Shown here one piece after another: positions 26,256 through 54,061 of a stretch of 64,000 nt of DNA. The first letter of the stretch is position 1, and each line of letters begins with the position of its first letter. This stretch comes from a virus. The translations under genes and the position numbers were made by a program. The stretch is from the IMG/VR virus record IMGVR_UViG_3300022748_000015, positions 32,001 through 96,000 of that record. One strand, given 5' to 3'. A model generated the notes under the pieces. The model was not told where the DNA came from. It saw only the letters and a list, made by a program, of their open reading frames with translations, and ran no database searches.

Positions 26256-27014
26256 GTGAAAATTTGTATTGCAACACCTATGTATGGTGGTAATGCCAAG
26301 AGTGTATTCATTACGAGCCTTGCCAATCTAACAATAAGACTTGCTCAGCGTGGTCACTCCGTTGTACAGACCAACCTCACCAACGAAAGTCTTATAACTA
26401 GAGCTCGAAATACTCTTACTTATTCTTTCCTAACATCCGACTGTGATGCTCTGCTATTTATTGATGGTGATCATGGATTTGATGCTGATGATATTGTAAA
26501 AATGGTTGAATCTGGTAAAGATTTAATTGGTGCAATTTACCCTATGAAGTCAATCAACTGGCAGGCTGTTAGAAATGCAGCACTGCTTGGTAAAGAAAAT
26601 TTAGAAGAATATTCTGGAATCTTTGCTGTAAATATGTTAGACACATCTCAGCATTTTGATGCCAATGAGCCATTTAGAGTTATGGATATTGGTACCGGTA
26701 TGATGTTTATTACTCGTAAAGTATTTAATGATCTTAAGCCATTGTGCAAAACATATAAGAGTAATAGTTATGGAAGTACTATTCCTTTTGGTGAAGATGT
26801 TGTTGAGTATTTTACTACCGCTATCAATGAAAAAGAGATTCTTTTGTCAGAGGACTATGCCTTCTGTGCAATGTGGAGATCTCTAGGTAATGATGTTTGG
26901 GCCGCCCCCTGGGTGAAGATTTCTCACGCTGGCGAATATAGTTTTTCTGGTCAGTTTGCAAAAACTGTAGAACTTCAGGCTGCAATAGCTGAGCATAATA
27001 GTAAAAATAACTAA
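26256..27014 (+). CDS. GT-A fold glycosyltransferase-like protein
   Basis: IATPMYGG, SLITRARN, LLFIDGD (DxD), GTGMMFI, LSEDYAFC, ISHAG; widespread phage GT-A-like family. Confidence 0.7.
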   Translation: MKICIATPMYGGNAKSVFITSLANLTIRLAQRGHSVVQTNLTNESLITRARNTLTYSFLTSDCDALLFIDGDHGFDADDIVKMVESGKDLIGAIYPMKSINWQAVRNAALLGKENLEEYSGIFAVNMLDTSQHFDANEPFRVMDIGTGMMFITRKVFNDLKPLCKTYKSNSYGSTIPFGEDVVEYFTTAINEKEILLSEDYAFCAMWRSLGNDVWAAPWVKISHAGEYSFSGQFAKTVELQAAIAEHNSKNN

Positions 27015-27949
27015 TCCCTAGTTGTTATAACTTTTTTATTTTTAAAGTCAAGTCCAGCGAATACTCCAAACTCACTTAAAGTTCGTACGGAGCCTAATGC
27101 ATCTTCTCCAATTCTTTCTAATTCGAATATAGATTTGACTTCTAGGCGTGATTCTTTATCTAAAGTTGGCCAAAGGTCGGGCCAGTCTGCCCAGGCGTGG
27201 TGTCTTCTTGCTAAGTGGTAGGGCTGCCCGCTGTGATATAGATGCCATACTAAGTGATTTCTGGCAGTCACAATATTAAAACCGTGAGTAAATGCTCTGG
27301 CTGCAATAAGAATTTCTTCACCCCAGAAGGCTACTTTTTTATTAGGTTTAATTTTTGCAAAAGATCCATCAGTAAAAATCATGCCGCCAGCTACTGAAGA
27401 TGTGTATTGACACCCGGGTGGTGTTGTTATAGCTAACTGACTAGGTATAAATCCTAATTCAAAGGAGTCAATTCGTTCTTTAAAAGAGACTCGTGTATTT
27501 TTTTGTTCGAAGTGATCCTCTAATATTACACTTCCGTTTTCTATATACCTATAGTTAGGCGGGTACATAGTTATTAGTGGTTTTGCTATTCCAATATTTT
27601 CATACCATCTATAGTCTTGTATAGCAAGTTCATCCCAGTTCTTTTGGAATCGCATGTGTGCATCTGTTTGAAGATAGAAGTCTTCGTCTATATACAATTC
27701 ATTTGCCATATACCTAGATAGTTGTACTCCAATATTATCTGGAGCTATGCTTTCTATATACCTAATCTCTACATGCTCCGGTGTATTTACATGAGAAATT
27801 GATATAGAGTCTTGTTCTAGCGTGCAGTTGTGCACCCCAAAAACAATTTTATTATTTCCTGATGACATTTCTATGGCATTTTTTATTGTCTCAGGGAGCT
27901 CTAAATCCCTATAGGCGGGGAGCTGAACAAATATGCTATTAGTCACCAT
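27011..27949 (-). CDS. GT60-like (Skp1-Hyp/polypeptide alpha-GlcNAc transferase type) glycosyltransferase
   Basis: IFVQLPAYRD.E, LQTDAHMRF.KNWD, AGGMIF, FWGEEI...RAFTHGF, WHLY; matches the GT60 (PF11397) pattern IFVSIASYRD...QIDSHMRF...WD...F.GEE. Likely start 27949 (ATGGTGA overlap); track start 27964. Confidence 0.8.
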   Translation of the reverse strand: MVTNSIFVQLPAYRDLELPETIKNAIEMSSGNNKIVFGVHNCTLEQDSISISHVNTPEHVEIRYIESIAPDNIGVQLSRYMANELYIDEDFYLQTDAHMRFQKNWDELAIQDYRWYENIGIAKPLITMYPPNYRYIENGSVILEDHFEQKNTRVSFKERIDSFELGFIPSQLAITTPPGCQYTSSVAGGMIFTDGSFAKIKPNKKVAFWGEEILIAARAFTHGFNIVTARNHLVWHLYHSGQPYHLARRHHAWADWPDLWPTLDKESRLEVKSIFELERIGEDALGSVRTLSEFGVFAGLDFKNKKVITTRD

Positions 27950-28188
27950 TTGTTGGTTGGACATGTTGAATCTTTAAATTCTACTCTTGTAGGCATAAAG
28001 CATCCACACTGGGAACATTGGCTAGTGTAGTTCACAAATAGTGGGCAATCTCGGCAAATATCTAATCTAGCATTGCTGATGTCTTGGTCTATCTTCTCTA
28101 GAGATAGGATATCTGTTGATTTAGGTGATATCTCCGTACCCCGTGTGCTGACTACTTTCTCTTTATAGAGCTGCCAAGCACTAGGCAT
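27943..28188 (-). CDS. Small Cys-rich protein (DUF6171-like)
   Basis: RLDICRDCP...CSQCGCFM.......STCPTNKW. Confidence 0.7.
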   Translation of the reverse strand: MPSAWQLYKEKVVSTRGTEISPKSTDILSLEKIDQDISNARLDICRDCPLFVNYTSQCSQCGCFMPTRVEFKDSTCPTNKW

Positions 28189-28516
28189 TCTGTAGTACCT
28201 CTACAAATTTTGGATCACTAGAGTATGCTGCCACTAGCATTTCATTTTCATTTGCTATTTCTTGAACTAGTGCTACTGAATCTCCTAGCAAGAATGCAAA
28301 TTTAGTAGCCATAGGATTAATGTCTATTTCGGCTACTGGAGATCCATCCATATAGAATGTGCCTTCAGCATATGTAGACCCTACTACTACATCCAACCCA
28401 TCGCAGATAACTATTGAAGGATTTGATCTTAGGGTGTCATAAAATCCGTCGTTGAGCTCTACTATCTCTAAATTAAATGCAAATGCATTATCAATGATTA
28501 ATGAAAAAGTTGCCAT
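28181..28516 (-). CDS. Small hypothetical protein, family repeated at 32349 and 33407
   Basis: FSLIIDN...LRSNPSIV and a second FAFLLGD...YSSDPKFV unit; similar to IALVIDG...LLAQPTFV and IAVLIDN...FLANPTFV. Confidence 0.6.
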   Translation of the reverse strand: MATFSLIIDNAFAFNLEIVELNDGFYDTLRSNPSIVICDGLDVVVGSTYAEGTFYMDGSPVAEIDINPMATKFAFLLGDSVALVQEIANENEMLVAAYSSDPKFVEVLQNA

Positions 28517-28522
28517 AGCTAA

Positions 28523-30640
28523 TTATAATTCCTCTTCCATCATACTCGGATCAATAGAGAAGATTCCAAAGCGTGGTGGGAATGAAGGTGGTGTTGCTGT
28601 CGTTGTTGTAGTTGGAGCAGCAGTAGTGGTAGTTGGAGCGGCTGTAGTGGTAGTCCCTCCTACTCCACTTCCACCAGTACATTCGTAATATGCTGTTGAT
28701 CCGGTAGATCCATCAGAACACTTATAGTAAAACTGTTGTACATAACCGCTACCGCAGATAGTTCCTGTATATCCGTTTGTACTATACCCTACATAGAATA
28801 AATTACCATTCACTCTGCCATAACTAGGGCCACACGTCACCCCTGCGGTAGTGGTAGTGGTTGTAGTAGTAGTTGTAGTGGTAGTTGCTGCTCCTGACAT
28901 TGTTATTCCGGCTGAATTTGATGCCAGAGTTGCAAATGAAGAGCTTAATGCTGAGACAGACAAGCTATATGAATTGCCAGGAGATACTGCCCAGCTTACG
29001 CTTGTTCCACCATATCCAGATGATGAGTCTATAGTAACTCCCCCGGAACTCAAGGTGTATGAGTATAGTGCTGTTCCAGATGGTGGATTAGACCAACTAC
29101 CTGTAAGTGAGGTAGATGAGTTTTCAGTTAGAGTTACTGTAAATGGTGCTGATGCAGGAGTAGTTACACTCGCGGAGTTTGATGCTAGAACTGTAAAAGA
29201 TGAGCTTTTCGCTGAAACAGTTAGGGTATAGCTTGTTCCTCCGGCTACAGTCCATGAGCCAGAGGTAGCACTCGTAGCATTTCCAGACGCAATAGTCGTG
29301 CCTCCAGATGAGAGTACATAGTCATATATTGCAGTACCAGCTGGAGGATTTGACCAACTTCCACTAACTGATGTAGCAGAGTTAGCGGTTAAACTTACTG
29401 AAAATACTCCAGGTGGGTTTGTCGTGGTAGTTGTAGTAGTGGTAGTTGACCCTACTGTCGCTGTTCCAGAGAGAAGTACTACACCGCCAGCTCCAATTGC
29501 TTGAACTGTAAACGTATAGCTATGGCCCGAAACTAGTCCAGTAAAGTTATAGAAGTTAGCCGCTGAGTTTGAATAAGATGATCCATTGTAGGACACTCCG
29601 CCTGGATCTGTATTATCAACCAACGAGAAACTAAAATAGGATGTCCCCGTTGGGCCCATGGTCCATGTGGTATTTATTTGAGTATCTGAGGCTGCTACTG
29701 CTGTCACATTTAGACTACCTACTGTAGTCACGTAGGAACTGGAACCTTGATCACCAACACCGTTTATATTAGTTCCAACTACTGTAGCATAGTAGATACC
29801 ATCAGCAACTCCAGTAAATGTTGTACTAGTATCGGTAGCACCTATTCCAGAGGCGGTATATGCTAGAGCACCAGTATTACCGTTATATAGCTTGACTGCT
29901 ACTGCTGATAGCGGAGCACCTCCCTCGTGACCATAGAAATTCCAGGTTACGGATATAGTTCCGGCTGCAGTTACACTTGCATTTACAGCTGGGCCTGCTG
30001 GCTTAGAGGTAATTAGCGCTGAGTTTGACCAATCTGACTGTAAGGATAGTCCGTTAGCATTTCTAACTGCAACTACAAATGAAGTATTGTATCCAGGAAT
30101 TAGGCTATTTGCGGTTACTGGTGAAGAAGATCCTTCTCCAACCTTAACTGTTGAGTTTAGGCTTGAGTATACTTCATAAGTAGAAACAGTTTTACCACCA
30201 GTAGCTCGAGGAACGAATCCAACAGTAGCTCCCGGGTTTCCGTAACTTCTATCAGTACCGATATTAGTTGCTGTACCAATAATTGGAGCCTGAGGCACGG
30301 TTGTAGCCACTACTGCAGCCGAAGGTGCTGAAGGAGCTGAATCTCCGTTGGTCCAATAACCAATGGCTTTAATGGTATAAGTATAAGAAACACCACTCTG
30401 TAGTCCAGTAATATTGATTGGTGAAGTAGAGCTTATAGCTGTAAAATTTCCTGGACTAGATGTTGCTTGGTAGTAAAGTGTGGGACCGCTAGTCGGATCT
30501 GGAGTAAAACTTATATCAACTGATCCATTATTATATTGACGGTTAAGTCCTACGTCTGTAGCAGAGATATTTGTTGGAGCTTTTGGTGGAAGATATGTCC
30601 ACACATTTGCTGAAGCTCGTCCTCCCAGGAATGGCTTCAT
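28523..30640 (-). CDS. Multi-Fn3 putative fibre-tip/adhesin with poly-Thr tracts and conserved C-terminal tag
   Basis: Likely start MKPFLGGRASA at 30640, 2 nt after the upstream stop (track start 30715). About six Fn3-like repeats; T9, T13 and (T4AAP) tracts; ends PPSFPPRFGIFSIDPSMMEEEL. Confidence 0.75.
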   Translation of the reverse strand: MKPFLGGRASANVWTYLPPKAPTNISATDVGLNRQYNNGSVDISFTPDPTSGPTLYYQATSSPGNFTAISSTSPINITGLQSGVSYTYTIKAIGYWTNGDSAPSAPSAAVVATTVPQAPIIGTATNIGTDRSYGNPGATVGFVPRATGGKTVSTYEVYSSLNSTVKVGEGSSSPVTANSLIPGYNTSFVVAVRNANGLSLQSDWSNSALITSKPAGPAVNASVTAAGTISVTWNFYGHEGGAPLSAVAVKLYNGNTGALAYTASGIGATDTSTTFTGVADGIYYATVVGTNINGVGDQGSSSYVTTVGSLNVTAVAASDTQINTTWTMGPTGTSYFSFSLVDNTDPGGVSYNGSSYSNSAANFYNFTGLVSGHSYTFTVQAIGAGGVVLLSGTATVGSTTTTTTTTTNPPGVFSVSLTANSATSVSGSWSNPPAGTAIYDYVLSSGGTTIASGNATSATSGSWTVAGGTSYTLTVSAKSSSFTVLASNSASVTTPASAPFTVTLTENSSTSLTGSWSNPPSGTALYSYTLSSGGVTIDSSSGYGGTSVSWAVSPGNSYSLSVSALSSSFATLASNSAGITMSGAATTTTTTTTTTTTTAGVTCGPSYGRVNGNLFYVGYSTNGYTGTICGSGYVQQFYYKCSDGSTGSTAYYECTGGSGVGGTTTTAAPTTTTAAPTTTTTATPPSFPPRFGIFSIDPSMMEEEL
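28528..28591. repeat. 64-bp perfect repeat, copy 1 (copy 2 at 47509-47572)
   Basis: ATTCCTCTTCCATCATACTCGGATCAATAGAGAAGATTCCAAAGCGTGGTGGGAATGAAGGTGG read identical at both sites. Confidence 0.9.
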
Positions 30641-30642: not shown

Positions 30643-32040
30643 CTATGCCATCAAATCGCCAACAGCAATCCAGGAGTTGGTTCCTGGACGCTTGATAAGA
30701 GTTGCTGACGCCCAACGGGTGCGAATTCTAAGACCAGGAACTCCCTGGATTGTTACGTTTCCATTAGCTGGAGTTAGGGTTACAAAACCAGTTCCAGTAC
30801 TAATTACTGTAATTTGTGCACCAGTAGTAAATCCAACGGTTGCCTCATCGGGGACATATAGGTTGGTATCCGAACTACTTGATATCTCTACGATTTGACC
30901 ATCATCAGATAGCGCAAGTGTATAGCTAGTGGCTAGCTGATTAAACGAGTAGTGATACGAAACAGGTCCGGTTGGTCCAGTCACTCCAGGCCCTGTAGGT
31001 CCTGTTACGGTGGATGCTGGTCCGGTTGGTCCAGTCACTCCAGGCCCTGTAGGTCCTATTGCTCCTGCAGTTCCTTGAATTCCTTGCACACCCTGAGGTC
31101 CGGTTGGCCCCTGCACACCCTGAGACCCTGCGGTTCCAGTTGGACCAGTCGCTCCCTGGATTCCTGCACCAGTTGCGCCAGTAGGACCGGTTGGTCCCTT
31201 AGTTCCTGTTGGACCAGTAACCGAAGGTCCAGTTACAGAAGGTCCGGTAGCACCCGTTGGGCCGACTCCACCCTGCGGTCCAGTTGGTCCAGGATTACCC
31301 TGCACACCCTGGACACCTTGAGTACCTTGCGGCCCGGTTACACCGGTGGCACCTTGTATACCAGTTGGGCCAGTTACGGAAATACCTATAGGTCCGGTGG
31401 CTCCAGTAGGGCCCACTACATTTGAAGGAGCACCAGTCGGTCCAGTTGCACCGGTCTCACCCTGAGCACCTGTTGGTCCAGTTGGTCCTTTATCTCCAAC
31501 ATCTCCAGTACGAGCAAAGGTGATGTAGATACCAGCTGTATTTGAAATTGAAGTAACCGAGCCAGAAACATAGGCAATAGGTACTTCAAAATAGGTGTCA
31601 TGGTGGTAGTGATTGCCAACTATTGAATAGTAGATATAGTTTTCTGGAGCATTTATCTCCGAAATTTTAAAAGTTCCCTTGATGGCAGAAGATGAGTCAT
31701 CAATAGTTTGTAGGAAGCTTGAGATATCTGTATCAGATAGGTCGTACCAAGAAATATACATTTCTGTAGCACTAGTTAATAGATTATTGAAGCTTAGATT
31801 ACCGTGCCCTGGGTTTTCATCAATAACTGATGTTAGGTAGTGGTATTCATATGTTGCTCCACCAAAAGTACCCTGAGGACCTTGCGGTCCAGTCGCACCA
31901 GTTGGTCCAGTTACAGTAGAGTCAGCACCAATGGGACCTTGATCACCCTGAGGACCAGTTGGTCCCGTAGGACCATGAGCACCAACAATTACCGGCTCCC
32001 ATTGTCCGGAATCTTGGTTAAATTGCTTTAATTGGCTCAT
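30643..32040 (-). CDS. Collagen-like fibre protein with shared C-terminal beta domain
   Basis: (Gly-X-Y)n rich in GPT/GAT/GVQ; ends ...[17 protein letters not shown]...W...GDLMA. Confidence 0.85.
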
Positions 32041-32075: not shown

Positions 32076-32097
32076 TCTTCTACTATTTTACCCTATT
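32076..32097 (-). promoter_or_regulatory. 22-bp repeated promoter-like element, copy 1
   Basis: Minus strand AATAGGGTAAAATAGTAGAAGA (TAAAAT -10), upstream of the 32040 start; identical at 38703-38724. Confidence 0.6.
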
Positions 32098-32365
32098 ATT
32101 CGGAAGCCTTAGGGGCCGTCCCCCAGTGCCCCTCTGGGCATGCTGCATTTGGCAGCTTAGTTTTGAGATTCATCATACAGCCGCATTTACGGCATTGTTT
32201 ACTGATTTTAAATAGAAATGGGCAGGTCAAGCATATAGCCATTCTCTGATCAGCTACTTCATCAGATACCCTACCTATGTCATCATTTAGTAGGTCCCAT
32301 GGTTTTGCTGCTCGCCTAAGTTGTTCGGGCGTAGGGAGCGGTGGAATCTCAGGTAGTTGGTTCAT
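32096..32365 (-). CDS. Small Cys-rich protein (DUF6171-like), paralog of 27943
   Basis: RMAICLTCP...CRKCGCMM.......ACPEGHW. Confidence 0.7.
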   Translation of the reverse strand: MNQLPEIPPLPTPEQLRRAAKPWDLLNDDIGRVSDEVADQRMAICLTCPFLFKISKQCRKCGCMMNLKTKLPNAACPEGHWGTAPKASE

Positions 32366-32699
32366 TTTCTATAAACTTCCCATCTACATATTTATAGTTG
32401 ATCTTGGCTTCTGAAGTATCTTCAGTAACCAGCACAAAAGTAGGTTGAGCTAGCAACATATCGGCCAAAAAATCCTGAGCTCTCATGACGTCAAATACTT
32501 GACCATCAATAACTAGAGCTATTGTATGGATAGTTGCATTCTCTGGCTCACTATTATGGGTATGGCTCTTGTCGTGACTATGACTATTACCACTATCGTG
32601 ACTGTGATTACTGGATAGCGAGTTCTTTATCTTCGTAAAAATAGATACTGAAGGCATTCCTGCCTCTGATGGTTTAGGTATTTTGTGCCTTGGCTTCAT
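32349..32699 (-). CDS. Small hypothetical protein with His-rich linker (repeated family)
   Basis: NHSHDSGNSHSHDKSHTH, then IALVIDGQV...LLAQPTFV. Confidence 0.6.
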   Translation of the reverse strand: MKPRHKIPKPSEAGMPSVSIFTKIKNSLSSNHSHDSGNSHSHDKSHTHNSEPENATIHTIALVIDGQVFDVMRAQDFLADMLLAQPTFVLVTEDTSEAKINYKYVDGKFIENEPTT

Positions 32700-33388
32700 T
32701 AGTTATATTCCTTGCGGTGCCACATTGTCTTTTTATAGTTAAAGTCAGCCATACGAGCCAACATTCCTCGGTAGTCAGCTTTCTTTTTAATATTTTCAGC
32801 CTTATCTACCATTACCCAGGATTCACGTTTAATTGGTATTAGCTGAGCTATTGGCGTACCTTCAGGAATTACTCCTTCAAAGTCTTCCTTTATAAAGAAG
32901 GGGATATTTCCAGCAGCAAAAAATTCATCGGAGTCCATTATTGCTGAAACGGTGTGAAATGGGAGCTCGTGTCGGTTTAGTGGATGAGTAACTAAGAGAC
33001 TAAACCCTTTAGGAGTTTTTATTCCCCAGAAACCGGAGAATGCCAGATGATTTGGAGCAAATCCAGGGGGTCGAGGTATAGTTGCACCTAACTCCTTAGG
33101 ACGCTCGTGAATAATCTCGCCTACTGGTGTTTTAGCATAAGAAAAATTAATTTCTCCAGAGTCGGACCTAGACACCTCTACATCAAAAGGAAATCTTAAT
33201 ACATACCCGCTCATCATGGAGTCAACAAATGGCATGCATTTCTTTAAACCAGCTGATTCTTCTTGATGCCCATCGCTAGTAAAGGTGCTTTCAGCATCTT
33301 TATACCAGGCGGGTATGGTCATTTTTGTGGGTACTGGTTTCCCGTAAGCTTCTTTGGCTTTATCAGTGAAGAATTTAATAAACTTCAT
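32699..33388 (-). CDS. DUF6065-like (dUTPase-like beta fold) protein
   Basis: IPAWYK, KKCMPF.D, W.IKTPKGFSLLVTHPLNR, IPEGTPIAQLIP.KRESW. Confidence 0.6.
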   Translation of the reverse strand: MKFIKFFTDKAKEAYGKPVPTKMTIPAWYKDAESTFTSDGHQEESAGLKKCMPFVDSMMSGYVLRFPFDVEVSRSDSGEINFSYAKTPVGEIIHERPKELGATIPRPPGFAPNHLAFSGFWGIKTPKGFSLLVTHPLNRHELPFHTVSAIMDSDEFFAAGNIPFFIKEDFEGVIPEGTPIAQLIPIKRESWVMVDKAENIKKKADYRGMLARMADFNYKKTMWHRKEYN

Positions 33389-33406
33389 AGATAAATAATA
33401 CTACAA

Positions 33407-33649
33407 TTATGCAGAAAATGTTCCGGTCTGAGGGTCATAGGTGTAGCCTACCTGAGCATCTCCCATGGCAACCTGAACAAATGTTGGGTTAGCTAGGAAT
33501 ACCGAGGCATTCTTACCATTAGTCTGTAGCATTTGATACACAACGTTGTCAATTAGAACAGCAATGTGAAATTGGTTCTCTCCAGGGGTAGCTTCTACTG
33601 GAGGAGCTGGACGCTCCAGAGCTGGAACTACTGGCAGTTGATCTGACAT
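33407..33649 (-). CDS. Small hypothetical protein (repeated family)
   Basis: IAVLIDNVV...FLANPTFVQV...GYTYDPQTGTFS; end resembles small fibre-assembly proteins. Confidence 0.6.
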   Translation of the reverse strand: MSDQLPVVPALERPAPPVEATPGENQFHIAVLIDNVVYQMLQTNGKNASVFLANPTFVQVAMGDAQVGYTYDPQTGTFSA

Positions 33650-33657: not shown

Positions 33658-34623
33658 TTAGTTTCTATCTATAGTTATTTTACTAATATTTGTAGTTTGG
33701 TTGTACGAGCTTGGAGCAATAGCTAATCCGAACTTAGTTGATTTTACAGAACCGGTAGCTGTATAGGTCATATCAGAACCTATCTGTGAAGTCATATTAG
33801 TATCTGAATATGCTTGGATTGTAATAACGTCTCCAAAAGTTTTAACTCTAAAAGCAGCCGATATTGCCGCGATCGCCTGGGACCATATCGAACTAACTAC
33901 TCCTGAGACACTATTTAAAATTTTAAAATACTGTGGGTAGCAGGTATTACATGAAGTGTAGTAACATGTGCTACAAACAGTTCGATAGCATGTGCTGCAA
34001 GAGTACCAAGCACTTGACCAACTATAGCAGTTGCAGTCATAGGGTGTTGTACTACACACGGTACTGTAATCTGCAGTACATGTTGGTGCTACATAATACC
34101 AAGCTACGCAGCCAACTCCGTACACTCGTACATCGCAACCGTATGCTCCTCCAGAGCAGTAATATGTCCCTGTTGCTCCATAACTACAGCTATAGCTGTA
34201 GCATGTTGAACATGTTGTACCACTTGCATATTGAGGAACACAGGAGCAGTCATATGGTTGGTCTGAACAGCTACAGCTATACCCAACTTGAGAGCAGTTA
34301 CAGTTTTCTGGTTGGCTAAAGCTTTGTACTCCCCACCAGTTACCGGAATCTGTGACCCATAGGGCAGCCATGGCCCCCTGACCACCTGCAATTAGTTCTA
34401 CCTTAGCGTTTTTTACACCCATATCTACTACTTGTAGAGGGTAGCTTGATGCAGAGGTAGATGTATTTAGTAGGTTATTTACAATGTTGAATGTTCCACT
34501 AAGGATATTCCACTTACTTCCATCAGTAGCAGCACCTGGTGTAGAGGTTGTATTTGCACGGATAAAAGTATCAACAAACTTCTTACGAAGAGAAGATGAT
34601 GATGCCGAGATATGTGGTCTCAT
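33658..34623 (-). CDS. Putative fibre-tip protein: beta-sandwich-like domain with 22-Cys insertion
   Basis: Likely start [11 protein letters not shown] at 34623 (TAATG overlap; track start 34692). DTFIRAN..PG..TDGSKW lectin-like N-terminus; Cys/Tyr/Ser/Thr-rich segment at 33940-34302. Confidence 0.7.
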   Translation of the reverse strand: MRPHISASSSSLRKKFVDTFIRANTTSTPGAATDGSKWNILSGTFNIVNNLLNTSTSASSYPLQVVDMGVKNAKVELIAGGQGAMAALWVTDSGNWWGVQSFSQPENCNCSQVGYSCSCSDQPYDCSCVPQYASGTTCSTCYSYSCSYGATGTYYCSGGAYGCDVRVYGVGCVAWYYVAPTCTADYSTVCSTTPYDCNCYSWSSAWYSCSTCYRTVCSTCYYTSCNTCYPQYFKILNSVSGVVSSIWSQAIAAISAAFRVKTFGDVITIQAYSDTNMTSQIGSDMTYTATGSVKSTKFGLAIAPSSYNQTTNISKITIDRN

Positions 34624-36758: not shown

Positions 36759-38310
<1,552 letters not shown>

Positions 38311-40536: not shown

Positions 40537-40538
40537 AG

Positions 40539-45610: not shown

Positions 45611-45626
45611 AGATCCAGTCTATACC

Positions 45627-46625: not shown

Positions 46626-47416
46626 AGAGGTATATATCCTTCAACATTCTTAATAAAGTCTATACCTACAACAGTGCATTGCTGACATCCAGGACATTCC
46701 TTATTACCTTCCGGTAAGTCGTTAAAGTATGGCCCATGCCCGGAATGCTCGTAATATCTTATGTCACCATCGAGCTTATACTTCTTCATAGCCTCTGCGT
46801 ACTGGATATTTCCTTCTTCGGAGTAGCAATCAATGTCATAAATCCAGTGGTCTTTAGTTGCATAATTAGCAAAAAGAACTGTTACGTAAGCTTCTTCATC
46901 GTCTACTGGATATCTAGGCCGAGTATGTACCTGCTGTTGGCCCATAAAAAAGATTCCGCTATTATTTTGCTCCTCGAAACGCTCACCATCAATTGAGAGC
47001 CCCCAGCTCGGAACTCGATGTGATTCCACGCAAATATCCGCTGTGTATTGAGTAGCTGGTTGATCCATGTGCTCCCAGATGTATGGGGTTATTCCCTTAT
47101 ATTGCTGGTATCTGGCTACCCAAACTATTTTTAGTCTAAGTTCTGGTAATCCCCATTGTTCTTTTCCTAGATTCTCTAGGTACTCCCAGACCTCTGGTGG
47201 AAAGTCTACCTCTGTATGCCATCTACCGAGGATGTTGTGATACGGAGTTGCATTAGGTTTATTTTCTGAACCTGGTCCCCAGTTTGCTTGTTCATCAATA
47301 GTTGTTTTTACCTTATTCAAAATATCTTTAGTAAATACATTTTCTAGATAAAAAGCTGGCTTGCCTTCTGGAAGCTTCCATTTAATGTTTGGACTAGTAT
47401 CAGCGTGTATAGGCAC
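46622..47416 (-). CDS. Divergent 2OG-Fe(II) oxygenase-like protein
   Basis: EHMDQPATQYTADICV...W.LSIDG...FMGQQQVHTRP; HxD...H pattern of a different phage 2OG family; Cys-containing tail. Confidence 0.6.
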   Translation of the reverse strand: MPIHADTSPNIKWKLPEGKPAFYLENVFTKDILNKVKTTIDEQANWGPGSENKPNATPYHNILGRWHTEVDFPPEVWEYLENLGKEQWGLPELRLKIVWVARYQQYKGITPYIWEHMDQPATQYTADICVESHRVPSWGLSIDGERFEEQNNSGIFFMGQQQVHTRPRYPVDDEEAYVTVLFANYATKDHWIYDIDCYSEEGNIQYAEAMKKYKLDGDIRYYEHSGHGPYFNDLPEGNKECPGCQQCTVVGIDFIKNVEGYIPL

Positions 47417-47440
47417 AATCTCTCCTGGGAATGCTAAAAG

Positions 47441-47470
47441 AGGAGCAGATTTCTCTGCCCCTCTTCTAGG
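47441..47470 (-). terminator. Intrinsic terminator after the (PPFF)n gene
   Basis: Minus strand AGAGGGGCAGA-GAAA-TCTGCTCCTCT followed by T run. Confidence 0.6.
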
Positions 47471-47482
47471 TTATATCTTTTT

Positions 47483-48448
47483 TTATTCTTCGTCTTCTTC
47501 GACTTCAGATTCCTCTTCCATCATACTCGGATCAATAGAGAAGATTCCAAAGCGTGGTGGGAATGAAGGTGGGAAGAACGGTGGGAAGAACGGTGGGAAG
47601 AACGGTGGGAAGAAAGGTGGGAAGAAGGGGAAGTAAGGGAAGAAAGGTGGGAAGAACGGTGGGAAGAATGGGAAGTAAGGAGGGAAGAACGGTGGGAAGA
47701 ACGGTGGGAAGAACGGTGGGAAGAATGGGAAGTAAGGAGGGAAGAACGGTGGGAAGAACGGTGGGAAGAACGGTGGTGTAGTAGAGATAGTATTAGTGGT
47801 TACAGTAGCCGAGTTACCATTTGCGTTAGTGGCATAGAGGCTAAAGTACTCATTTGTTCCACCTGGAACGGGGGTATCGTAGTATACAGCGCTAGTAGGA
47901 GTGCCGCTATTGGCTAGGGACCCTACTCCGATGACGATAGGAGTATTTGGGGCTAGCGATGGAACCAGCGTAGTTTGAGTAATAGCTGAACCACCAGTTG
48001 CTCCTACAGTCCAAGCAATTCGGTCAGAGTCAGCACTTGGCGAGCTTAGGGCTGGCGACTGAGGAGCTTGAGGAACAGTAGTAACTGCAACTGAAGATGA
48101 TGTTACTGCATTAGAATTTCCAGCAGCATTCTTTGCAACTACAGAGAATGTATATGAAACTCCAGAAGCAAGACCTTCAAACACAAACGGTGCACCACCA
48201 GTAGGTAGTGTAGTTGTATTCTTAGTTACAGTTGCTGGGGTTGAAGTGATGTCATAGCTTGTTGCTGCTGGAGATAGTGCTGGAAGGGTCCATACTAGGT
48301 TTACAGCACCACCCTGACCATTAGTTCCGGTAGCTACAGCAAGGTATGGTCGGTTAGTTCCAACGTTAGTTGCAGTTGTGATTGTTACATCATTAGGCTG
48401 TAGGAAGTCATTCTGTGACTGTGAGTGTCTACCAGCTCTTTTTGCCAT
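47483..48448 (-). CDS. Two-Fn3 putative fibre-tip protein with 76-aa (PPFF)n repeat and conserved C-terminal tag
   Basis: Fn3-like W..PA...Y.I...GL.SG.SYTF.V.A.N; then PPFF repeats; ends PPSFPPRFGIFSIDPSMMEEESEVEEDEE. Confidence 0.8.
   Translation of the reverse strand: MAKRAGRHSQSQNDFLQPNDVTITTATNVGTNRPYLAVATGTNGQGGAVNLVWTLPALSPAATSYDITSTPATVTKNTTTLPTGGAPFVFEGLASGVSYTFSVVAKNAAGNSNAVTSSSVAVTTVPQAPQSPALSSPSADSDRIAWTVGATGGSAITQTTLVPSLAPNTPIVIGVGSLANSGTPTSAVYYDTPVPGGTNEYFSLYATNANGNSATVTTNTISTTPPFFPPFFPPFFPPYFPFFPPFFPPFFPPFFPPYFPFFPPFFPPFFPYFPFFPPFFPPFFPPFFPPFFPPSFPPRFGIFSIDPSMMEEESEVEEDEE
47509..47572. repeat. 64-bp perfect repeat, copy 2
   Basis: Identical to 28528-28591. Confidence 0.9.
47549..47776. 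repeat. Coding tandem repeat, 12-bp unit GGGAAGAACGGT with 9-bp variants
   Basis: Encodes 12 exact PPFF tetrads plus PPYF/PFF/PYF variants on the minus strand. Confidence 0.95.
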
Positions 48449-48465
48449 TTCTTAATTCTCTCCTA

Positions 48466-51400
48466 TTAAGCTGACAGGTCTCCGTAGACCAACCAGGTGT
48501 TTGCTGCACGCTTTAGTAGTGTAGCAGATGACCACTGAGTGCGAAGCTTCAGACCTGGAGTAGCATTTACGGTAACTCCACCGGCACCAGCAATTGTTAC
48601 CTGACCTGTTGAAGTCTGAATAATATCAATTGTAGTGCCTACTGGGAAGTTCAATGTTGAGTCCAGAGGAATAGTTAGAGTAGTGGCTGATGTATTAGCA
48701 ACTTCAATGATTGTGTCACGCTCAGTTAGTGCGCTTAGGGTGTATGAAGCGCTCTTACCCGAGATAGTAGTAATTGAAGGAACGCCAGCAACAGTTTGAA
48801 CTGACCCATCTGAGAATGTAACTCCACCGGAAGCGAGGCTGATTGTCTTGTTGGTGAGGGTCTGAGTTCCAGTTAGGGTTGCAACCACTGCAGTATCAAT
48901 ACCGATAGTCACAGCGCTTGAACCGTTGTATGAAGTTCCGGTTAGGCCGCTGTTGATGGTAAGAGTGTTTAGGTTACTTCCTAGGGTGATACCTGAGATG
49001 GTTGATGCTGCAAGCTTAGAAACTGCGATAGCAGCTGAGTCTGAAATATCGCCATTAACAATGGTCCCGTCCAGGATCATTGCTGAAGTAACAGTTCCAG
49101 TTGGGAGGGTTACAGTTCCTGTAAAGGTTGGACTGGCCGTTGGAGCCTTTGAATCAATCTGAGTCTGGACTGCCGAGGTTACGCCATCAAGATATTGGAG
49201 CTCGGTGTTTGAGACATTTCCAATAGTTGCAGATGTTGCCTGCAGAGCACCAATCTTTAGAGTGTCATAGGTAACTCCAGTGAAGTCGACTACGCTATCT
49301 GTTGGTTCGGTTGCTCCAGATACTAGCTTCCATACTCCATCGGAGGCATCGCGGACAAGACCAGTGTGTGGGTGGTTAGAGCTGTTGGTTCCACCATTAC
49401 CGTAGGCACCATAAATACCTATATCTAAAATATCAGCTGAATACTGCGAGTCAGCTAGGTAGATAAGTGAGTCAGCTACTGCAAGGTTAGTACTATTTAC
49501 AATAGTTTGGGTTCCGGTGACCGTTAGGTTAGCAGTAGTTAGGTCAGTTGCATTAACTGTAGGGGCAACAAGAGTTCCAGTGAAGGTTGGGCTAGCTAGG
49601 TTAGCCTTAAGATCCAAAGCAGTCTGAGTTGCAGTAGATACTGGCTTATTGGCATCCGATGTATTATCTACGTTAGCAAGACCAACCATTGACTTGGTAA
49701 TTCCGGAAACGGTACCGGTAAAGGTTGGGTTTGAAGTAGGTGCCTTAGAATCCAACTGAGTTTGGATTGAAGATGTTACTCCATCTACATATCCGATCTC
49801 GGCGGCAGATACTGTACCGATAGATGTAGTTGCAGGAAGAACTACAGTTCCAGTAAGTGTTGCGTTGGCAAGTGGTGCCTTTAGGTCAAGTGCAGCCTGC
49901 TGAGCAGTTGATACAGGCTTGCCAGCATCCGAAGTGTTATCTACGTTGCCGAGTCCTACCATAGCCTTAGTTACACCGGAAACGGTTCCTGTGAAGGTTG
50001 GTGACTCGATCGGTGCGTAAGTTGCTGCAATAGAGGCTGTGCTTAGCTTTGAATCAAGCTGAGCTTGAATGCTTGAAGTAACACCATCTACATAGCCTAG
50101 CTCGGTTGCAGATACGTTTCCGATAGAGGTTGCTGCTGGTAGAACTACAGTACCGGTAAAGGTTGGGTTTGAAGTAGGTGCCTTCAAATCTAGGGCAGAT
50201 TGGGTTGCTGTAGAGATTGACTTATTAGCATCTGAGGTGTTGTCAACATTAGATAAACCAACCATTGCTTTGGTAATACCGGAGGTTGTTCCGGTAAATG
50301 TGGCATTGGCAGTCGGGGCCTTGCTATCAAGCTGAGCCTGAATACCTGAGGTAACACCATCTACGTAACTAATCTCTGACGCTGACACATTGCCAATTGA
50401 GGTAGTGGCAGGGAGAACGACAGTTCCAGTTAGAGTCGGGGAGTTAATGTCTGCCTTGAGAGCTATCGAGTTGTTGATAGTGGTTTGGTCGGCAGTTGTT
50501 AGAAGGAGTGCAGTATTAGCAATACCATGTACGTTGGTAGTCGTAGTGTTGTGGGTGTCGATGTCTGACTTAGTTGCAAGTGCTGCAGTATTTGCGATAC
50601 CGTGCACGTTTGTGGTGTCTAGGTTGTGGGTATCGATGTCTGAGAGCATCGCTAGATCGGCAGTATTAGCGATACCATGTACATTTGTAGTATCGCTTGT
50701 GTGTGCATAAAGAGTTGATGAAACAACTAGGTCGGCAACATTAGCAATACCATGGACCTCGGTGGTTTGGGCCATGTGATATGCCATCATATTGTTGGCA
50801 TAGTTCTCTAGCTGAGCTGTTAGATCGGTAATCTCTGTAGAGGTTGTTCCAGCATATGGAAGAGCAGTCCAGTGGGAGGTACCATTACCGATCTTGAACT
50901 TACCGGTATTTGACTCTAGAACGAAGCTGCTTGCCTCAGGTACTGCATTAGCAGAAGTCAGGTTGGCGGCAGTGTCTACAACAAGAGTTGCCTTAGTTGC
51001 AATGTTATTAGCAACAGTAGTGGAGAAGTTAGGGTCATCTCCAAGAGCTGCGGCCAGTTCATTTAAGGTATTTAGTAGGTTTGGTGATGAATCTACTAGC
51101 GCAGAGATGGCTGAGTCAGCGTAAGCCTTTGCTGCTGATTCAGCAGTATCTGCCTTGGTCTGAGCGCCAGTCTTAGTTTCGAGGGCAGCAGTGTTTGCAA
51201 TACCGTGAATATTAAGAATTGAAGAGTTGTGGGCATATAGCTCTGAATCTGTATATGACTCTGCAGTGGAAACTCCAACATCTACCCTATTCTGAGCACC
51301 AGTCTTAGTCTCTAGTTCGTTTGTATCAGCGATGCCGTGAACGTTAGTGTGTGAGCTGCTGTGTGCTGAGACTGTATTTGCAAGGTCAGCAATTAATGCA

Positions 51401-51576
51401 TCAACCTGACTAGGTAGATCGGTTGCATATCCGAGATCAGCCCAAGCGAGGCCGGCTCGACCAATTTTAAACTTGCCAGAGTCTGACTCAAAGCCGACTT
51501 CACCATCAGAAAGGGTAGGGTTAGTTGAGGTCCAGTTAGCGGCAGTACCGCGTCTAAGCTGAATCTTAATTGCCAT
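48466..51576 (-). CDS. Long tail fibre with Mtd_N-like N-terminus and shared C-terminal beta domain
   Basis: IQLRRGTAANW...L.DGEVGFE.D.GKFKIG; six H-x7-HGI repeats; repeated PTFTGTV...YVDGVTS.IQ.QLDSK; ends PGLKLRTQWSSATLLKRAANTWLVYGDLSA. Confidence 0.85.
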   Translation of the reverse strand: MAIKIQLRRGTAANWTSTNPTLSDGEVGFESDSGKFKIGRAGLAWADLGYATDLPSQVDALIADLANTVSAHSSSHTNVHGIADTNELETKTGAQNRVDVGVSTAESYTDSELYAHNSSILNIHGIANTAALETKTGAQTKADTAESAAKAYADSAISALVDSSPNLLNTLNELAAALGDDPNFSTTVANNIATKATLVVDTAANLTSANAVPEASSFVLESNTGKFKIGNGTSHWTALPYAGTTSTEITDLTAQLENYANNMMAYHMAQTTEVHGIANVADLVVSSTLYAHTSDTTNVHGIANTADLAMLSDIDTHNLDTTNVHGIANTAALATKSDIDTHNTTTTNVHGIANTALLLTTADQTTINNSIALKADINSPTLTGTVVLPATTSIGNVSASEISYVDGVTSGIQAQLDSKAPTANATFTGTTSGITKAMVGLSNVDNTSDANKSISTATQSALDLKAPTSNPTFTGTVVLPAATSIGNVSATELGYVDGVTSSIQAQLDSKLSTASIAATYAPIESPTFTGTVSGVTKAMVGLGNVDNTSDAGKPVSTAQQAALDLKAPLANATLTGTVVLPATTSIGTVSAAEIGYVDGVTSSIQTQLDSKAPTSNPTFTGTVSGITKSMVGLANVDNTSDANKPVSTATQTALDLKANLASPTFTGTLVAPTVNATDLTTANLTVTGTQTIVNSTNLAVADSLIYLADSQYSADILDIGIYGAYGNGGTNSSNHPHTGLVRDASDGVWKLVSGATEPTDSVVDFTGVTYDTLKIGALQATSATIGNVSNTELQYLDGVTSAVQTQIDSKAPTASPTFTGTVTLPTGTVTSAMILDGTIVNGDISDSAAIAVSKLAASTISGITLGSNLNTLTINSGLTGTSYNGSSAVTIGIDTAVVATLTGTQTLTNKTISLASGGVTFSDGSVQTVAGVPSITTISGKSASYTLSALTERDTIIEVANTSATTLTIPLDSTLNFPVGTTIDIIQTSTGQVTIAGAGGVTVNATPGLKLRTQWSSATLLKRAANTWLVYGDLSA

Positions 51577-51974
51577 TAGAAGCTACTTTCGTTTCCACCA
51601 TCATAGGTAAAGTTGTAGGTAGTAGTGGTAGAGGTTCCACCATCAATTGTACCAGTTACTGAAGACACGTTGTATAGTCCAGCATCTGCAGAAATAAGCC
51701 CGAAATCGGACAGTAGGCTGATCAAACTAATATTTACCCAGGAGGTAGTGGTTTGGTCGTAGAGAAGGACATCTCCGCCTGCAGGTGAGGGTGCCTGAAC
51801 ATCTGTAAGGGTTGACATTGCTGCAGATGGCCCGCTAGAAGCAGACCAGGAACTGCCATCAAAGGTATATACCTTTTTGTCTGTAGTTAGAAAAAAGAGG
51901 TCGCCAGTTAAACCTGCCGCAGGTAGAACTGGCCCATGTGGCAGGTTTACTGGCGTTAAAAACTTTCTTGACAA
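51576..51974 (-). CDS. Small virion structural protein
   Basis: G.TGDLFF.T.DKKVY.FDGSSW and LTDVQ...GDVLLYD...WVN fibre-type motifs; N-terminus MSRKFLT shared with neighbour. Confidence 0.65.
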   Translation of the reverse strand: MSRKFLTPVNLPHGPVLPAAGLTGDLFFLTTDKKVYTFDGSSWSASSGPSAAMSTLTDVQAPSPAGGDVLLYDQTTTSWVNISLISLLSDFGLISADAGLYNVSSVTGTIDGGTSTTTTYNFTYDGGNESSF

Positions 51975-52001
51975 AGTTTTTCCTCTTTATTTAAAGGCTT
52001 A

Positions 52002-53372
52002 TTAGCCGATTACTACAACTTGATATGCACCAGCTGCAACAGTAGCTGCTGAAACCCATGAAAGAGTTGCAACAGTAGTGCTGGTACGAACTACATCTAC
52101 TTCAACCTGATCATATGATACGGCATCAAATACCTGAACTAGTACGTTGCGGGTACCTAGTCCGTGAGTCACGGTCCATGAAACAACATTACTAGACGGC
52201 ACTAGTTCCGCATTTGCTTCGGTGTGCTTAGTAGTAGGAGCAGCAGCCGAGATAGCTCCAGATACAGTATTATCTACATACTGCTTGGTTGCAGCCATTA
52301 AGTTAGATGTCGGATCGCTTGCAAGAGTTAGGTCACCAGTCATGGTGTCGCCATTCTTAGCAACCTTATTAGCAATAGCATTGGTAACAGAGGTTGCGAA
52401 GCTTGGGTCATCAGCAATTGCTGCTGCAAGTTCATTGAGAGTGTTAAGAAGATCCGGAGCACCAGCGACTAATCCTGCTACTGCAGAGTCAATGCGATCC
52501 TTAACAGTATTTCCAGTTGAGCCATTAACAGTTGCATCACCAATAAGACCGCCTACATAACCGTGAGAAGCGATCTCATTGCCTGCCGACGCGGCTGTAA
52601 TATAGGCAGTACCATCAGCATTAAGAACGATATTTCCAGTAGTGGAAACAATGTCTACGGTTCCGGGAGTAGTTATGTCTACTGCATAACCTGAATGTAC
52701 GGTTAGTTTTCCAGAACTATTATCAACGCTAACAAAGTTATTAGCCCCGCCTGCTCCACCAGCTGATTGGAAGTAGGTATCCCCGGTGAAGGTCTTATTA
52801 GAAAGATTCTGAATATCAGAAGTTCCAACAACATCACCAGTTACTCCGTGAACTCCAGAGGAAGATCCAGTGTGGGTATCTAGGTGTCCTTGTACGGTGC
52901 TTGCAGAACCTGCAGCATCGTAGTTTACAGCTAGACCATCAGCGTAGTTCTGAGCTGCAGTTTGGGCAGCTGATGCTGCTCCAGCTACGTCATAGTTGAC
53001 AGCAAGACCATTGGCATATGATTTAGCAGCTGCTTCAGCAGAAGCCGCTGAGCCCACTGCATCGTAGTTACCTGCGAGTGAATCTGCATATCCTTCAGCT
53101 GCAGTCTGAGCCGCTGCTGCAGCACCCTTAGCATCATAGGTGTTTGCTAGATCAAGAGCTGTGATTGCTGCATTGATAGCATCTGAAACGCTTCCACCCT
53201 GAGCAAGGGTTAGCCAAGAGGTGCCATTGAAGTAGCGAAGAGTGTTGTCACCAGTGTTGTAATAGATTTGACCAGCTACAGGTGACTGAGGAGCAATAGC
53301 CAGGTTTTGGATTCTGGCATTCAGCAGCTCATTCTTATTAAGATTGAGCCCCGTTAGGAATTGACGTGACAT
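52002..53372 (-). CDS. Fibre/whisker-like virion structural protein
   Basis: [17 protein letters not shown]; Ala-rich A..YAD.LA..YD repeats; [19 protein letters not shown]; K.GDTMTG.L; W.VTHGLGT C-terminal domain. Confidence 0.7.
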
Positions 53373-53381
53373 TATGTTTCC

Positions 53382-53699
53382 TTATGAGAGATGAGCTTTT
53401 CCAGAAATTGCCTCTGAAAAAGATATGGTTAGTTGAGTTTCATTGATATGTGTCACTGTTCCTTCTATCTGCGATTCCCCACTGTCAAAGACAGTCACAT
53501 TTGGAAAGAAGTTTAAATTGTGCAGTACAGTCCAGATTGTTGCCGGAGTGCTTTGTAGATGCCTATAAGAAACTAGGGGTACAATTTCACTGGCAGCAAT
53601 ACCGTTAGTTCCAGCTGGACCTTGGGGTCCGGGGGCGGAGACTATGATTTGGCGAACATATTTACCGGATGCGACACTACTCGCTACATCTCCAGCCAT
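53382..53699 (-). CDS. Small virion protein with short collagen stub
   Basis: PGPQGPAG then H.QSTPA..W.V.HNL..FPNVTVFD domain. Confidence 0.65.
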   Translation of the reverse strand: MAGDVASSVASGKYVRQIIVSAPGPQGPAGTNGIAASEIVPLVSYRHLQSTPATIWTVLHNLNFFPNVTVFDSGESQIEGTVTHINETQLTISFSEAISGKAHLS

Positions 53700-54061
53700 T
53701 ATCTGGTCACCTCTGCTCTAACTACAAAATTTCCCTGAATCAGTTTGTATACATAAAGCTCGGAGTTTGGGGCAACTAGCTCTAGATCGTAAACGTACTT
53801 ATCTTCAGGTATGGTTGCCATATCTTCATCAGAAACATAAAGTTCAATGTTTCCATTTGAAGCTCCTAAACTGATCCCACCATTTTCAGTTGTTAGGTCA
53901 AGGATTATTACATCGCTATCGCTTGTTTTTCTCACCTGCATGCGGGCTGTGTATCCTCTAAGTAGGATAGGCTTTTTTGCAGGGTCTCTCCATAGGATAG
54001 TGCGTGAAAAAGTAGAGCCTTGGTCAGCAACCATATTGTATAGTCCAGCTGGTGTGCTCAT
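53699..54061 (-). CDS. Small virion adaptor-like protein, paralog of 38311
   Basis: DQGSTF.RTI.W...GYTARMQVR...YVYDLEL...QGNFVVRAEVTR; first gene of the minus-strand island. Confidence 0.7.
   Translation of the reverse strand: MSTPAGLYNMVADQGSTFSRTILWRDPAKKPILLRGYTARMQVRKTSDSDVIILDLTTENGGISLGASNGNIELYVSDEDMATIPEDKYVYDLELVAPNSELYVYKLIQGNFVVRAEVTR

Follow-up and report, generated by a model that had tools for sequence, protein, structure and literature searches.

Multi-copy 2-oxoglutarate (2OG)-Fe(II) oxygenases have been noted in phages since at least 2010, without a known substrate. In the Synechococcus phage Syn9, ten tandem dioxygenases are accompanied by a protein of dUTPase fold with a conserved Cys (Iyer, Abhiman, de Souza, Aravind 2010, PMC2938197). 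The prolyl 4-hydroxylase (P4H) of PBCV-1 (vCPH, 5c5t) hydroxylates Pro-rich repeat peptides in vitro (PMC7019647), and mimivirus L230 (with R699) provides a virus-encoded hydroxylase and glucosyltransferase acting on viral collagen (PMC9546862). Mycobacteriophage glycosyltransferases, as summarised from a study cited elsewhere, put O-linked glycans on the phages' own capsid and tail-tube proteins (Freeman et al. 2023, cited in PMC11256854), and GT60 enzymes are polypeptide alpha-N-acetylglucosamine (GlcNAc) transferases on Thr-rich mucin domains (PMC8724618). Here, we describe a gene island at positions 27011-54061 of a viral stretch of 64,000 nucleotides (the window, bases 32001-96000 of the 124.8-kb IMG/VR record IMGVR_UViG_3300022748_000015, estimated to be 73% complete), in which fibre genes are followed by genes for tip proteins and by candidate modifying enzymes. 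We lean towards reading it as a fibre-region island in which fibre, tip and enzymes follow one another, the enzymes being those that would modify the tip in the infected cell before assembly.

Hydroxylase arrays and diproline tips

The first cassette (A) comprises the following genes, from upstream to downstream on the minus strand:

48466-51576, minus strand: fibre A, 1036 aa, with an Mtd_N start (PF18454, E 2.5e-15) and the common C-terminal domain
47483-48448, minus strand: tip A, with Fn3 (E 1e-5), a (PPFF)n tract of ~76 residues, PPRFG and an acidic tail, and no Cys
46622-47416, minus strand: orf264 oxygenase, 2OG-Fe(II) double-stranded beta-helix fold (AlphaFold2 (AF2) model, pLDDT 93; no Pfam match)
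45627-46625, minus strand: GT60b, with C-G-H in place of D-x-H (PF11397, E 8e-21, 75.3 bits)
44876-45610, minus strand: P4H7, core paralogue, catalytic motifs kept (PF13640, E 1e-11)
44118-44876, minus strand: P4H6, core paralogue, with orthologues in 188 loci (PF13640, E 1e-12)
43384-44118, minus strand: DUF6065 protein, dUTPase-like beta fold with C-terminal helices and an invariant Cys (PF19541, E 3e-27; AF2 pLDDT 91)
42669-43400, minus strand: DUF6065-like paralogue (phrog_7084; PHROG 7084, E 2e-33), 32% identical (E 9e-42) to 32699-33388
41960-42655, minus strand: P4H5 (PF13640)
41370-41963, minus strand: P4H4 (PF13640)
40539-41336, minus strand: P4H3 (PF13640)
39886-40536, minus strand: P4H2 (PF13640)
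39410-39886, minus strand: conserved 158-aa gene that recurs inside related arrays
38740-39426, minus strand: P4H1 (PF13640)

What these genes are, how their products fold and which catalytic motifs they keep could be shown, as could the co-variation of tip type and enzyme set across genomes. Six of the seven PF13640 genes of the island scored between 39.6 and 58.2 bits against a cut-off of 27, and P4H5 (41960-42655) lay at its edge, with 26.4 bits by hmmscan and 28.2 bits in a six-frame search. The HxD, NDDYxGGE, distal His and G-x-R/K motifs are kept in all eight PF13640 copies, that is, the seven of the island and the one at 63327-63938. The seven genes and orf264 are contained within 8.7 kb, with pairwise identities of 23-46%. 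P4H7, P4H6 and P4H5 are each present as one orthologue per locus in 142-188 loci (142 for P4H7), yet they are only ~25-35% identical to each other, which argues for old paralogues with separate conserved roles and not for recent duplicates. The nearest solved sequences of P4H2 were those of the Bacillus anthracis collagen-type P4H, P3H1 and PiuC-type hydroxylases (E 5e-4 to 2e-2). As for orf264, a sequence-only reading made previously on this DNA had called it a 2OG-like oxygenase. A model built with 16 homologues from related contigs, in all of which HxD...HxR is invariant, matched SptF, PBCV-1 vCPH (5c5t) and PHD2 in Foldseek (~E 1e-6), so that fold and invariant motif uphold the label for a gene to which Pfam is blind. 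Two further PF13640 genes are found on the plus strand beyond the island: 63327-63938, directly after a canonical dUTPase gene (62698-63126), and G000:C1:99779-100054.

The DUF6065 model aligned with dUTPases at a VIA-align Z of 11 (Foldseek E 1e-4), and all the 13 chains at Z >=8 were dUTPases or dUTPase-like domains; its C37 is invariant in 46 sequences. Gene 43384-44118 has no PF00692 match, its identity to dUTPases in the structural alignments is 7-16%, and the five dUTPase motifs are absent, as judged by eye only; the canonical dUTPase of this genome is the one at 62698-63126. The idea that DUF6065 could be a hidden cupin or oxygenase was ruled out by the dUTPase-like fold. Where (FxFTP)n tips have lost their hydroxylases, DUF6065 genes persist, so the protein may act on something other than proline. 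DUF6065-like homologues also occur in ~50 haloarchaeal tailed viruses (for instance L430, Halorubrum virus HSTV-2, KC117376.1, 28132-29001), where they adjoin thymidylate synthase and DNA polymerase genes.

The relation between tips and enzymes was followed from three search starts: the substrate (a degenerate DNA pattern for PPFFPPFFPP), the enzyme (homology to P4H7) and the fibre domain, the last one blind to tip and enzymes. The DNA pattern was present in at least 120 viral contigs, from which 80 loci, many of them short, were fetched. P4H genes were found in 52 of these, DUF6065 in 38 and a fibre with the common C-terminal domain in 44, in the gene order fibre, tip, P4H/DUF6065 array; as a background, P4H was found in 2 of 70 loci around unrelated GT60 genes. 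Among the enzyme-selected loci, 66 of 77 had a PPFF tip; in nine of the remaining 11, the contig stops no more than ~1.5 kb upstream of the array, and the other two carry an Fn3 tip with too few motifs to be counted. Finally, in the fibre-selected loci, P4H genes were located within four genes of 41/42 PPFF tips versus 9/29 other tips. Where an array followed a tip without literal PPFF, the tip carried (G/S/A)PPxFF repeats. Orthologues of tip A itself were found in more than 100 contigs.

For a finer comparison, 142 non-identical tips were scored for diprolines, and P4H genes were counted among the eight genes that follow. At least two P4H genes were present after 93 of 107 tips with Pro-Pro (PP)/aromatic repeats versus 1 of 19 tips with aromatic repeats but no PP (odds ratio ~120, p 3e-12), and the PP/aromatic tips had a median of four P4H and two DUF6065-type genes. 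As the scored tips are related, they were collapsed by identity of the fibre domain: the array was present in 27/32 PP versus 0/5 no-PP clusters at 80% identity (p 6e-4), and in 11/15 versus 0/5 at 70% (p 0.008). Even within one cluster of 91 near-identical fibres, at least two P4H genes were found after 71 of 78 PP tips, and at most one after 12 of 13 no-PP tips. A comparison of whole records (P4H in 5/5 vs 0/5) was down-weighted, as all of them are fragments and the L012 contig ends at the fibre (L numbers denote fetched stretches of related contigs). Behind a short (PPYF)n tip type, the array consists of a single P4H and a single DUF6065-like gene, perhaps the minimal unit. The sequence-only reading had proposed that enzymes match their adjacent substrates and had named the synteny of fibre, tip and enzyme genes in related contigs as a check; for the Pro-rich tips the contigs support the proposal, since arrays track diproline tips and are nearly absent after aromatic no-PP repeats. 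That the hydroxylase array would act on the Pro-Pro/aromatic stalk is the best supported of the steps that we infer.

As a separate observation, homologous Fn3 tips without an array (L352, L353, L355, L363, L400, L408, L413, and L416) carry the no-diproline repeats (VFGF)n, (FGFTP)n or (YSFTP)n, which are reminiscent of FG repeats, and some of them keep only a DUF6065-like gene.

These data also bear on a different explanation, in which the array and its dUTPase-fold partner tailor a small molecule or peptide metabolite (ribosomal or non-ribosomal) or a host protein, and adjoin the tips only because the island is hypervariable. Secondary-metabolite roles were indeed proposed for the Syn9 array (Iyer et al. 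2010, PMC2938197), the matches of the window P4H genes in cultured phages are cyanophage "2OG-Fe(II) oxygenase/PiuC" genes without known role, and the halovirus DUF6065-like genes sit amid nucleotide-metabolism genes. However, whether an array is present, and how large it is, goes with how much diproline the adjoining tip contains, also where the fibres are nearly identical, the tip-then-array order is fixed in more than 100 contigs, and Pfam detected no halogenase, non-ribosomal peptide synthetase, ATP-grasp or transporter gene among the open reading frames (ORFs) of the island. We therefore consider this explanation unlikely.

Layout of the island and the collagen-like fibres

The island contains 31 ORFs between 27011 and 54061, all of them on the minus strand and tightly packed. 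Every ORF named in the sequence-only reading was recovered on this strand with the same coordinates, and the gene labels stood up to Pfam, fold and paralogy tests. The genes outside cassette A are the following:

53699-54061, minus strand: phrog_1084-type protein, 120 aa, first gene of fibre module 1 (PHROG 1084, E 7e-24), 48% identical to 38311-38673
53382-53699 and 51576-51974, minus strand: small genes on either side of the 456-aa fibre gene
52002-53372, minus strand: fibre protein, 456 aa, with tail-fibre PHROG matches and a 46-residue block in common with fibre A
38311-38673, minus strand: second phrog_1084-type protein, first gene of fibre module 2 (PHROG 1084, E 8e-24)
36758-38311, minus strand: collagen-like protein, 517 aa (PF01391, E 9e-42)
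34623-36758, minus strand: fibre B, collagen-like repeats and the common C-terminal domain (PF01391, E 1e-25)
33658-34623, minus strand: tip B, 321 aa, of which 22 are Cys; neither a PPFF tract nor a Thr run is present (from its sequence)
32096-33649, minus strand: helpers of cassette B, namely a small gene (33407-33649), a DUF6065-like gene (32699-33388), a second small gene (32349-32699) and DUF6171 (32096-32365)
30643-32040, minus strand: fibre C, collagen-like repeats and the common C-terminal domain (PF01391, E 3e-19)
28523-30640, minus strand: tip C, with several Fn3 (E 4e-14), Thr runs (9 and 13 residues), a knot of six Cys, T4AAP repeats and the same PPSFPPRFG...EEE end as tip A
28181-28516, minus strand: small-family gene of cassette C, recognised by its sequence motif, its position kept in L009, L017, L018, L019, and L020
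27943-28188, minus strand: DUF6171 small Cys protein of cassette C (PF19668, E 7e-8; phrog_13558, E 3e-17)
27011-27964, minus strand: GT60a, with intact D-A-H (PF11397, E 9e-36, 124.4 bits)

The claim that one layout is repeated three times holds for the common core of fibre, tip and helper genes but not for the helper sets, which differ: the full order of small gene, DUF6171 and GT60 is restricted to cassette C, cassette B has no GT60, and cassette A has neither small gene nor DUF6171. The layout is not a chance arrangement, as it recurs in hundreds of viral contigs. Fibres A, B and C have a C-terminal domain in common (E 2e-19 to 5e-21, by paralogy within the window), tips A and C have an Fn3 part in common, and the window also holds paralogous pairs of DUF6171, GT60 and DUF6065-like genes. 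Alternatively, the phrog_1084-type genes 53699-54061 and 38311-38673 can be taken as the starts of two modules that make up the island. The small family is defined by the motif h-h-h-D-G/N-x-V ... S/A-N/Q-P-T/S-h-V, and homologues with it were found in L009, L013, and L017. The starts of tips C and B at 30640 and 34623 are backed by the positions of ATG codons and by an orthologue with the same first residues. Tip B homologues in L105 and L115 do have PPFF tracts. Promoter and terminator scans gave fewer sites than shuffled sequence and marked no cassette boundaries.

The collagen-like genes raise the question of whether the hydroxylases act on (Gly-Pro-Thr)n fibres instead of the PPFF tip. 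Three collagen-like proteins are encoded in the island, and 38311-38673 and the collagen gene 36758-38311 come directly after the array, a position that a collagen gene also takes in the closest relatives (L212 and L214). In addition, the nearest solved relative of P4H2 is the collagen-type enzyme of B. anthracis, and collagen is a substrate of animal, Bacillus and mimivirus enzymes. Against this, collagen repeats were present in 0/112 fibres preceding an array of at least two P4H genes, and collagen genes were found in 20/183 loci with arrays versus 19/92 without them (odds ratio 0.47). Fibre-selected loci gave the same picture when those with an array were compared with those without, with collagen in 5/49 versus 7/29 and PP repeats in 47/49 versus 9/29, and the collagen fibres of cassettes B and C have no adjoining P4H. 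Collagen as the hydroxylase substrate is thus disfavoured by synteny, and we regard it as very unlikely.

Some features of the tip ends were observed aside from these comparisons. The last ~64 nt of the genes for tips A and C (47509-47572 and 28528-28591) are identical and encode PPSFPPRFGIFSIDPSMMEEE, with flanks that differ, which suggests either recent gene conversion or a docking or processing tag in common. Tips of the closest relatives end in PPRFG(Y)SIDPRELD and an acidic tail; in many others, PPxFK is the terminus. In some related tips (for example L231:2550-3959, L134:6071-7393, and L416:10352-11665), a C-terminal Hint/intein-like domain comes straight after the repeat; these domains start with Cys or Ser followed by x-x-x-D-T-L-I and are below threshold in Pfam (Intein_splicing 3e-6, Hint_2 3e-3). 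This suggests self-cleavage at the stalk end.

GT60 and DUF6171 genes behind Thr- and Cys-rich tips

The D-x-H metal-binding motif defines the GT27 and GT60 families, and the Skp1 hydroxyproline GlcNAc-transferase is a member of GT60. Both GT60 genes of the island score well above the curated PF11397 cut-off of 21 bits; a sequence search of the PDB with GT60a returned nothing useful, and no GT60 structure was matched. The closest relatives of GT60a are 36-57% identical to it, and L009 and L012-L021 keep the order fibre, tip, small gene, DUF6171, GT60, with an orthologue of tip C itself in L012. In 8 of 10 such cassettes, the tip has Thr runs of 5-21 residues, compared with 0.94% of 4059 ORFs (runs >=5), and in these tips PPFF-type and Thr tracts occupy the same slot, between the Fn3 domain and the small Cys-rich end. 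The converse was not found, a point that counts against the Thr step: among loci picked by at least 12 Thr codons, GT60 was present in 1/80, on the same contig as L017. A Thr-run tip can thus be expected where GT60a occurs, but not GT60 wherever a Thr run occurs; the earlier pairing of the Thr-rich tip with GT60 stands in the first direction and fails in the second. That GT60a acts on Thr-rich tips is plausible from this arrangement.

GT60b is a different case. The sequence-only reading had set the Pro-rich tip beside hydroxylases and GT60, citing the Skp1 pathway in which GlcNAc is put on hydroxyproline, and two sets of data tell against such a step on the PPFF tip. GT60 genes were found within four genes of 4/105 PPFF tips and in 0/77 hydroxylase-selected loci, and GT60b is without the Asp of D-x-H, TCGH being kept in the L354 and L393 orthologues, where the orf264-GT60b pair also follows PPFF tips. 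With GT60 rare beside PPFF tips and its motif changed to C-G-H, hydroxyproline glycosylation is poorly supported; the proposal is weakened to a minority option, at most an optional extra that some of these phages might have.

It could be argued that the GT60 genes are only packaged in the same operon, and that the acceptor is not the tip but, for example, a different phage protein or, for superinfection exclusion, a polymer of the host cell wall. Phage glycosyltransferases are usually ascribed to DNA or cell-surface modification (PMC10202952), and, besides the 1/80 of the poly-Thr loci, GT60 relatives were found in at least 541 viral stretches of varied context. On the other hand, a GT60a-type gene always ends the fibre, tip, small gene, DUF6171 cassette, with Thr runs in 8/10 tips, S/T-rich neighbours of distant GT60 genes are above background (17/70 loci vs 1% per ORF), and the characterised GT60 enzymes are polypeptide transferases (PMC8724618). 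We consequently give little credence to such other targets.

Several GT60 genes from other contexts are worth recording. A 551-aa GT60-P4H fusion (PF11397 4e-74, PF13640 6e-16) is encoded at L024:1773-3428, directly after a major capsid gene. At L062:40-5810, GT60, P4H, GT60, DUF6065, an unassigned gene and a carbamoyltransferase gene of NodU/CmcH type stand in a row, possibly a variant of the system that decorates glycans. Fusion and row give some indirect support for hydroxyproline glycosylation. In another, large group of phage contigs (L023-L091), distant GT60 proteins of ~415 aa are encoded among very Cys-rich proteins of 500-1000 aa (26-34 Cys) and TP-linker proteins; 31 of the 70 distant loci have a neighbour with at least 20 Cys. 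Within the window, 19320-21438 (minus strand) encodes two paralogous GT2 glycosyltransferases fused to tetratricopeptide repeats (TPR), with sub-threshold matches to PF23558 (P4H peptide-substrate-binding TPR, E 1e-3 to 2e-3). This pair may be part of the same protein-glycosylation theme, and plus-strand replication genes separate it from the island.

The DUF6171 genes follow another property of the tips. They were located within four genes of 21/49 tips with at least four Cys in the last 80 residues versus 5/98 other tips (p 5e-8), and the window fits this link, as a DUF6171 gene accompanies tip B with its 22 Cys and tip C with its 6, but not tip A, which has none. In two loci (L013:2120-3154 and L017:1865-2914), a radical S-adenosylmethionine (SAM)/SPASM enzyme (PF04055 2e-10, PF13186 7e-10) is encoded between DUF6171 and GT60, behind Cys-rich tips, which suggests a thioether-type cross-linking of the tip Cys knot.

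Proposed pathway, distribution and known systems

We infer every chemical step of the proposed pathway from sequence. In a tip, one or more Fn3 domains are followed by a stalk of low complexity and an end that varies. Prolines in the (PPFF)n stalk of tip A would be hydroxylated by the PF13640 oxygenases with orf264 and the DUF6065 partners, and the ancient P4H paralogues would act on different positions or carry out different steps. GT60a would put N-acetylhexosamine (HexNAc; GlcNAc from UDP-GlcNAc by family precedent) on the Thr runs of tip C. In tips B and C, the DUF6171 proteins would be the helpers of the Cys-rich knot, joined in some relatives by the radical-SAM/SPASM enzyme, and GT60b may glycosylate the hydroxylated stalk, this being the weakest step.

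In addition to the GT60 counts and the GT60b motif described above, several points weigh against a pathway of this kind. The tip-enzyme associations are phylogenetically non-independent, and when fibre clusters were drawn at 60% identity the array was present in 6/10 PP versus 0/4 no-PP clusters (p 0.085). That tips are virion components is suggested by gene position and Fn3 content only. The nucleotide-metabolism context of DUF6065 relatives in haloviruses fits the dUTPase-like fold of the protein but no obvious role in a fibre. Hydroxyproline was not found in PBCV-1 virions despite the P4H of this virus (PMC7019647). Finally, homologues of the tip and of DUF6065 were absent from 50,697 GenBank phage records, with no cultured phage carrying the module, and a DNA-level search of GenBank phages with region 38000-48500 gave zero matches.

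A broader proposal, which we regard as possible though doubtful when taken as a whole, would be a modular tailoring of receptor-binding appendages comparable to that of ribosomally synthesised and post-translationally modified peptides (RiPPs), in which each tip element has its own adjoining enzyme set: P4H and DUF6065 for Pro-Pro/aromatic repeats, GT60 for poly-Thr, DUF6171 with or without radical-SAM/SPASM for Cys knots, and Hint-type domains for C-terminal processing. If so, the result would be a hydroxylated, glycosylated or cross-linked virion polymer, an undescribed class of virion chemistry, and many orphan phage 2OG oxygenases would gain a function.

Regarding the origin of the island, the window has a GC content of ~44%, similar to that of cultured phages of freshwater "Ca. 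Nanopelagicales" (PMC10202952), and encodes tape-measure and minor tail proteins, a PolA-type polymerase, a helicase, a ribonucleotide reductase and PhoH. The genome has two WhiB genes, and its primase is ~50% identical to those of the Microbacterium phages Pumpernickel and A3Wally and 62% identical to that of Actinomycetia phage DSL-LC01. This uncultured lake phage thus appears to be a large siphophage, whose host would be a low-GC freshwater actinobacterium. A scan of prokaryote genomes (596 Gb) for the PPFF pattern returned 63 stretches, 49 of them without a PPFF ORF or module family (the pattern being in another frame or present only once), six with an isolated short PPFF ORF and eight with parts of the phage module. 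Parts of the fibre/PPFF tip/P4H module were seen in L301, L318, L331, L335, L342, L345, and L351, on contigs binned into metagenome-assembled genomes of Verrucomicrobiales, Gammaproteobacteria, Acidibacter, Cyclobacteriaceae and Chitinophagaceae. These are probably mis-binned phage contigs and, as the bins span unrelated phyla, they give no clue to the host.

The analysis names a clonable substrate candidate for the multi-copy phage oxygenases, the Pro-Pro/aromatic repeat of a fibre accessory protein, and the no-PP repeats without enzymes provide natural controls. The window adds to the evidence in that the PPFF, poly-Thr and Cys-knot tip chemistries each come with their own helper genes. If the pathway operates as proposed, the few modifications of virion proteins known to be encoded by phages would be extended by prolyl hydroxylation and, in some phages, by O-HexNAc glycosylation. 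This would matter for how abundant freshwater phages recognise hosts, adhere and keep their particles stable, and protein engineering would gain a set of compact hydroxylases and a bacterial-type GT60. The sequence-only reading knew of no description of such a pathway. Its elements have precedents in phage dioxygenase arrays (PMC2938197) and mimivirus collagen enzymes (PMC9546862); a full-text literature search found neither prolyl hydroxylation of phage virion proteins nor a description of PPFF-repeat fibre proteins.

Compared with the known systems, the mycobacteriophages use other glycosyltransferase families and no hydroxylases, and none of those phages has the genes of this island. The Skp1 pathway of Dictyostelium and Toxoplasma (PhyA and Gnt1) relies on the same two enzyme families in a cytoplasmic setting, but it modifies one Pro of Skp1 in oxygen sensing, whereas the candidates here are long repeats on phage fibre accessory proteins, and GT60b, the copy beside the hydroxylases, is without the D of D-x-H. 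With mimivirus L230 the island has in common the pairing of hydroxylase and glycosyltransferase, an architecture paralleled by the GT60-P4H fusion of L024; the mimivirus enzyme, however, combines Lys hydroxylation, glucose and PLOD-type domains on Gly-X-Y collagen, in contrast to P4H-type and GT60 enzymes with PPFF and poly-Thr as candidate targets and no collagen link. PBCV-1 also encodes a small P4H-type oxygenase, 5c5t, which is matched by the orf264 fold and is among the weak sequence matches of P4H2, but it is a single enzyme of a eukaryotic virus without substrate synteny, and the island instead couples 7-8 paralogues with a single repeat protein. Syn9 resembles the island in its tandem divergent classical 2OG-Fe(II) dioxygenases and in a dUTPase-fold protein with a conserved Cys, here DUF6065, whose Cys is invariant. 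It differs by a JmjC/MINA member and two tryptophan halogenases, for which the island ORFs gave no Pfam match, and, whereas no substrate protein was named for Syn9, the array of this island is firmly tied to a fibre-module protein with Pro-Pro/aromatic repeats.

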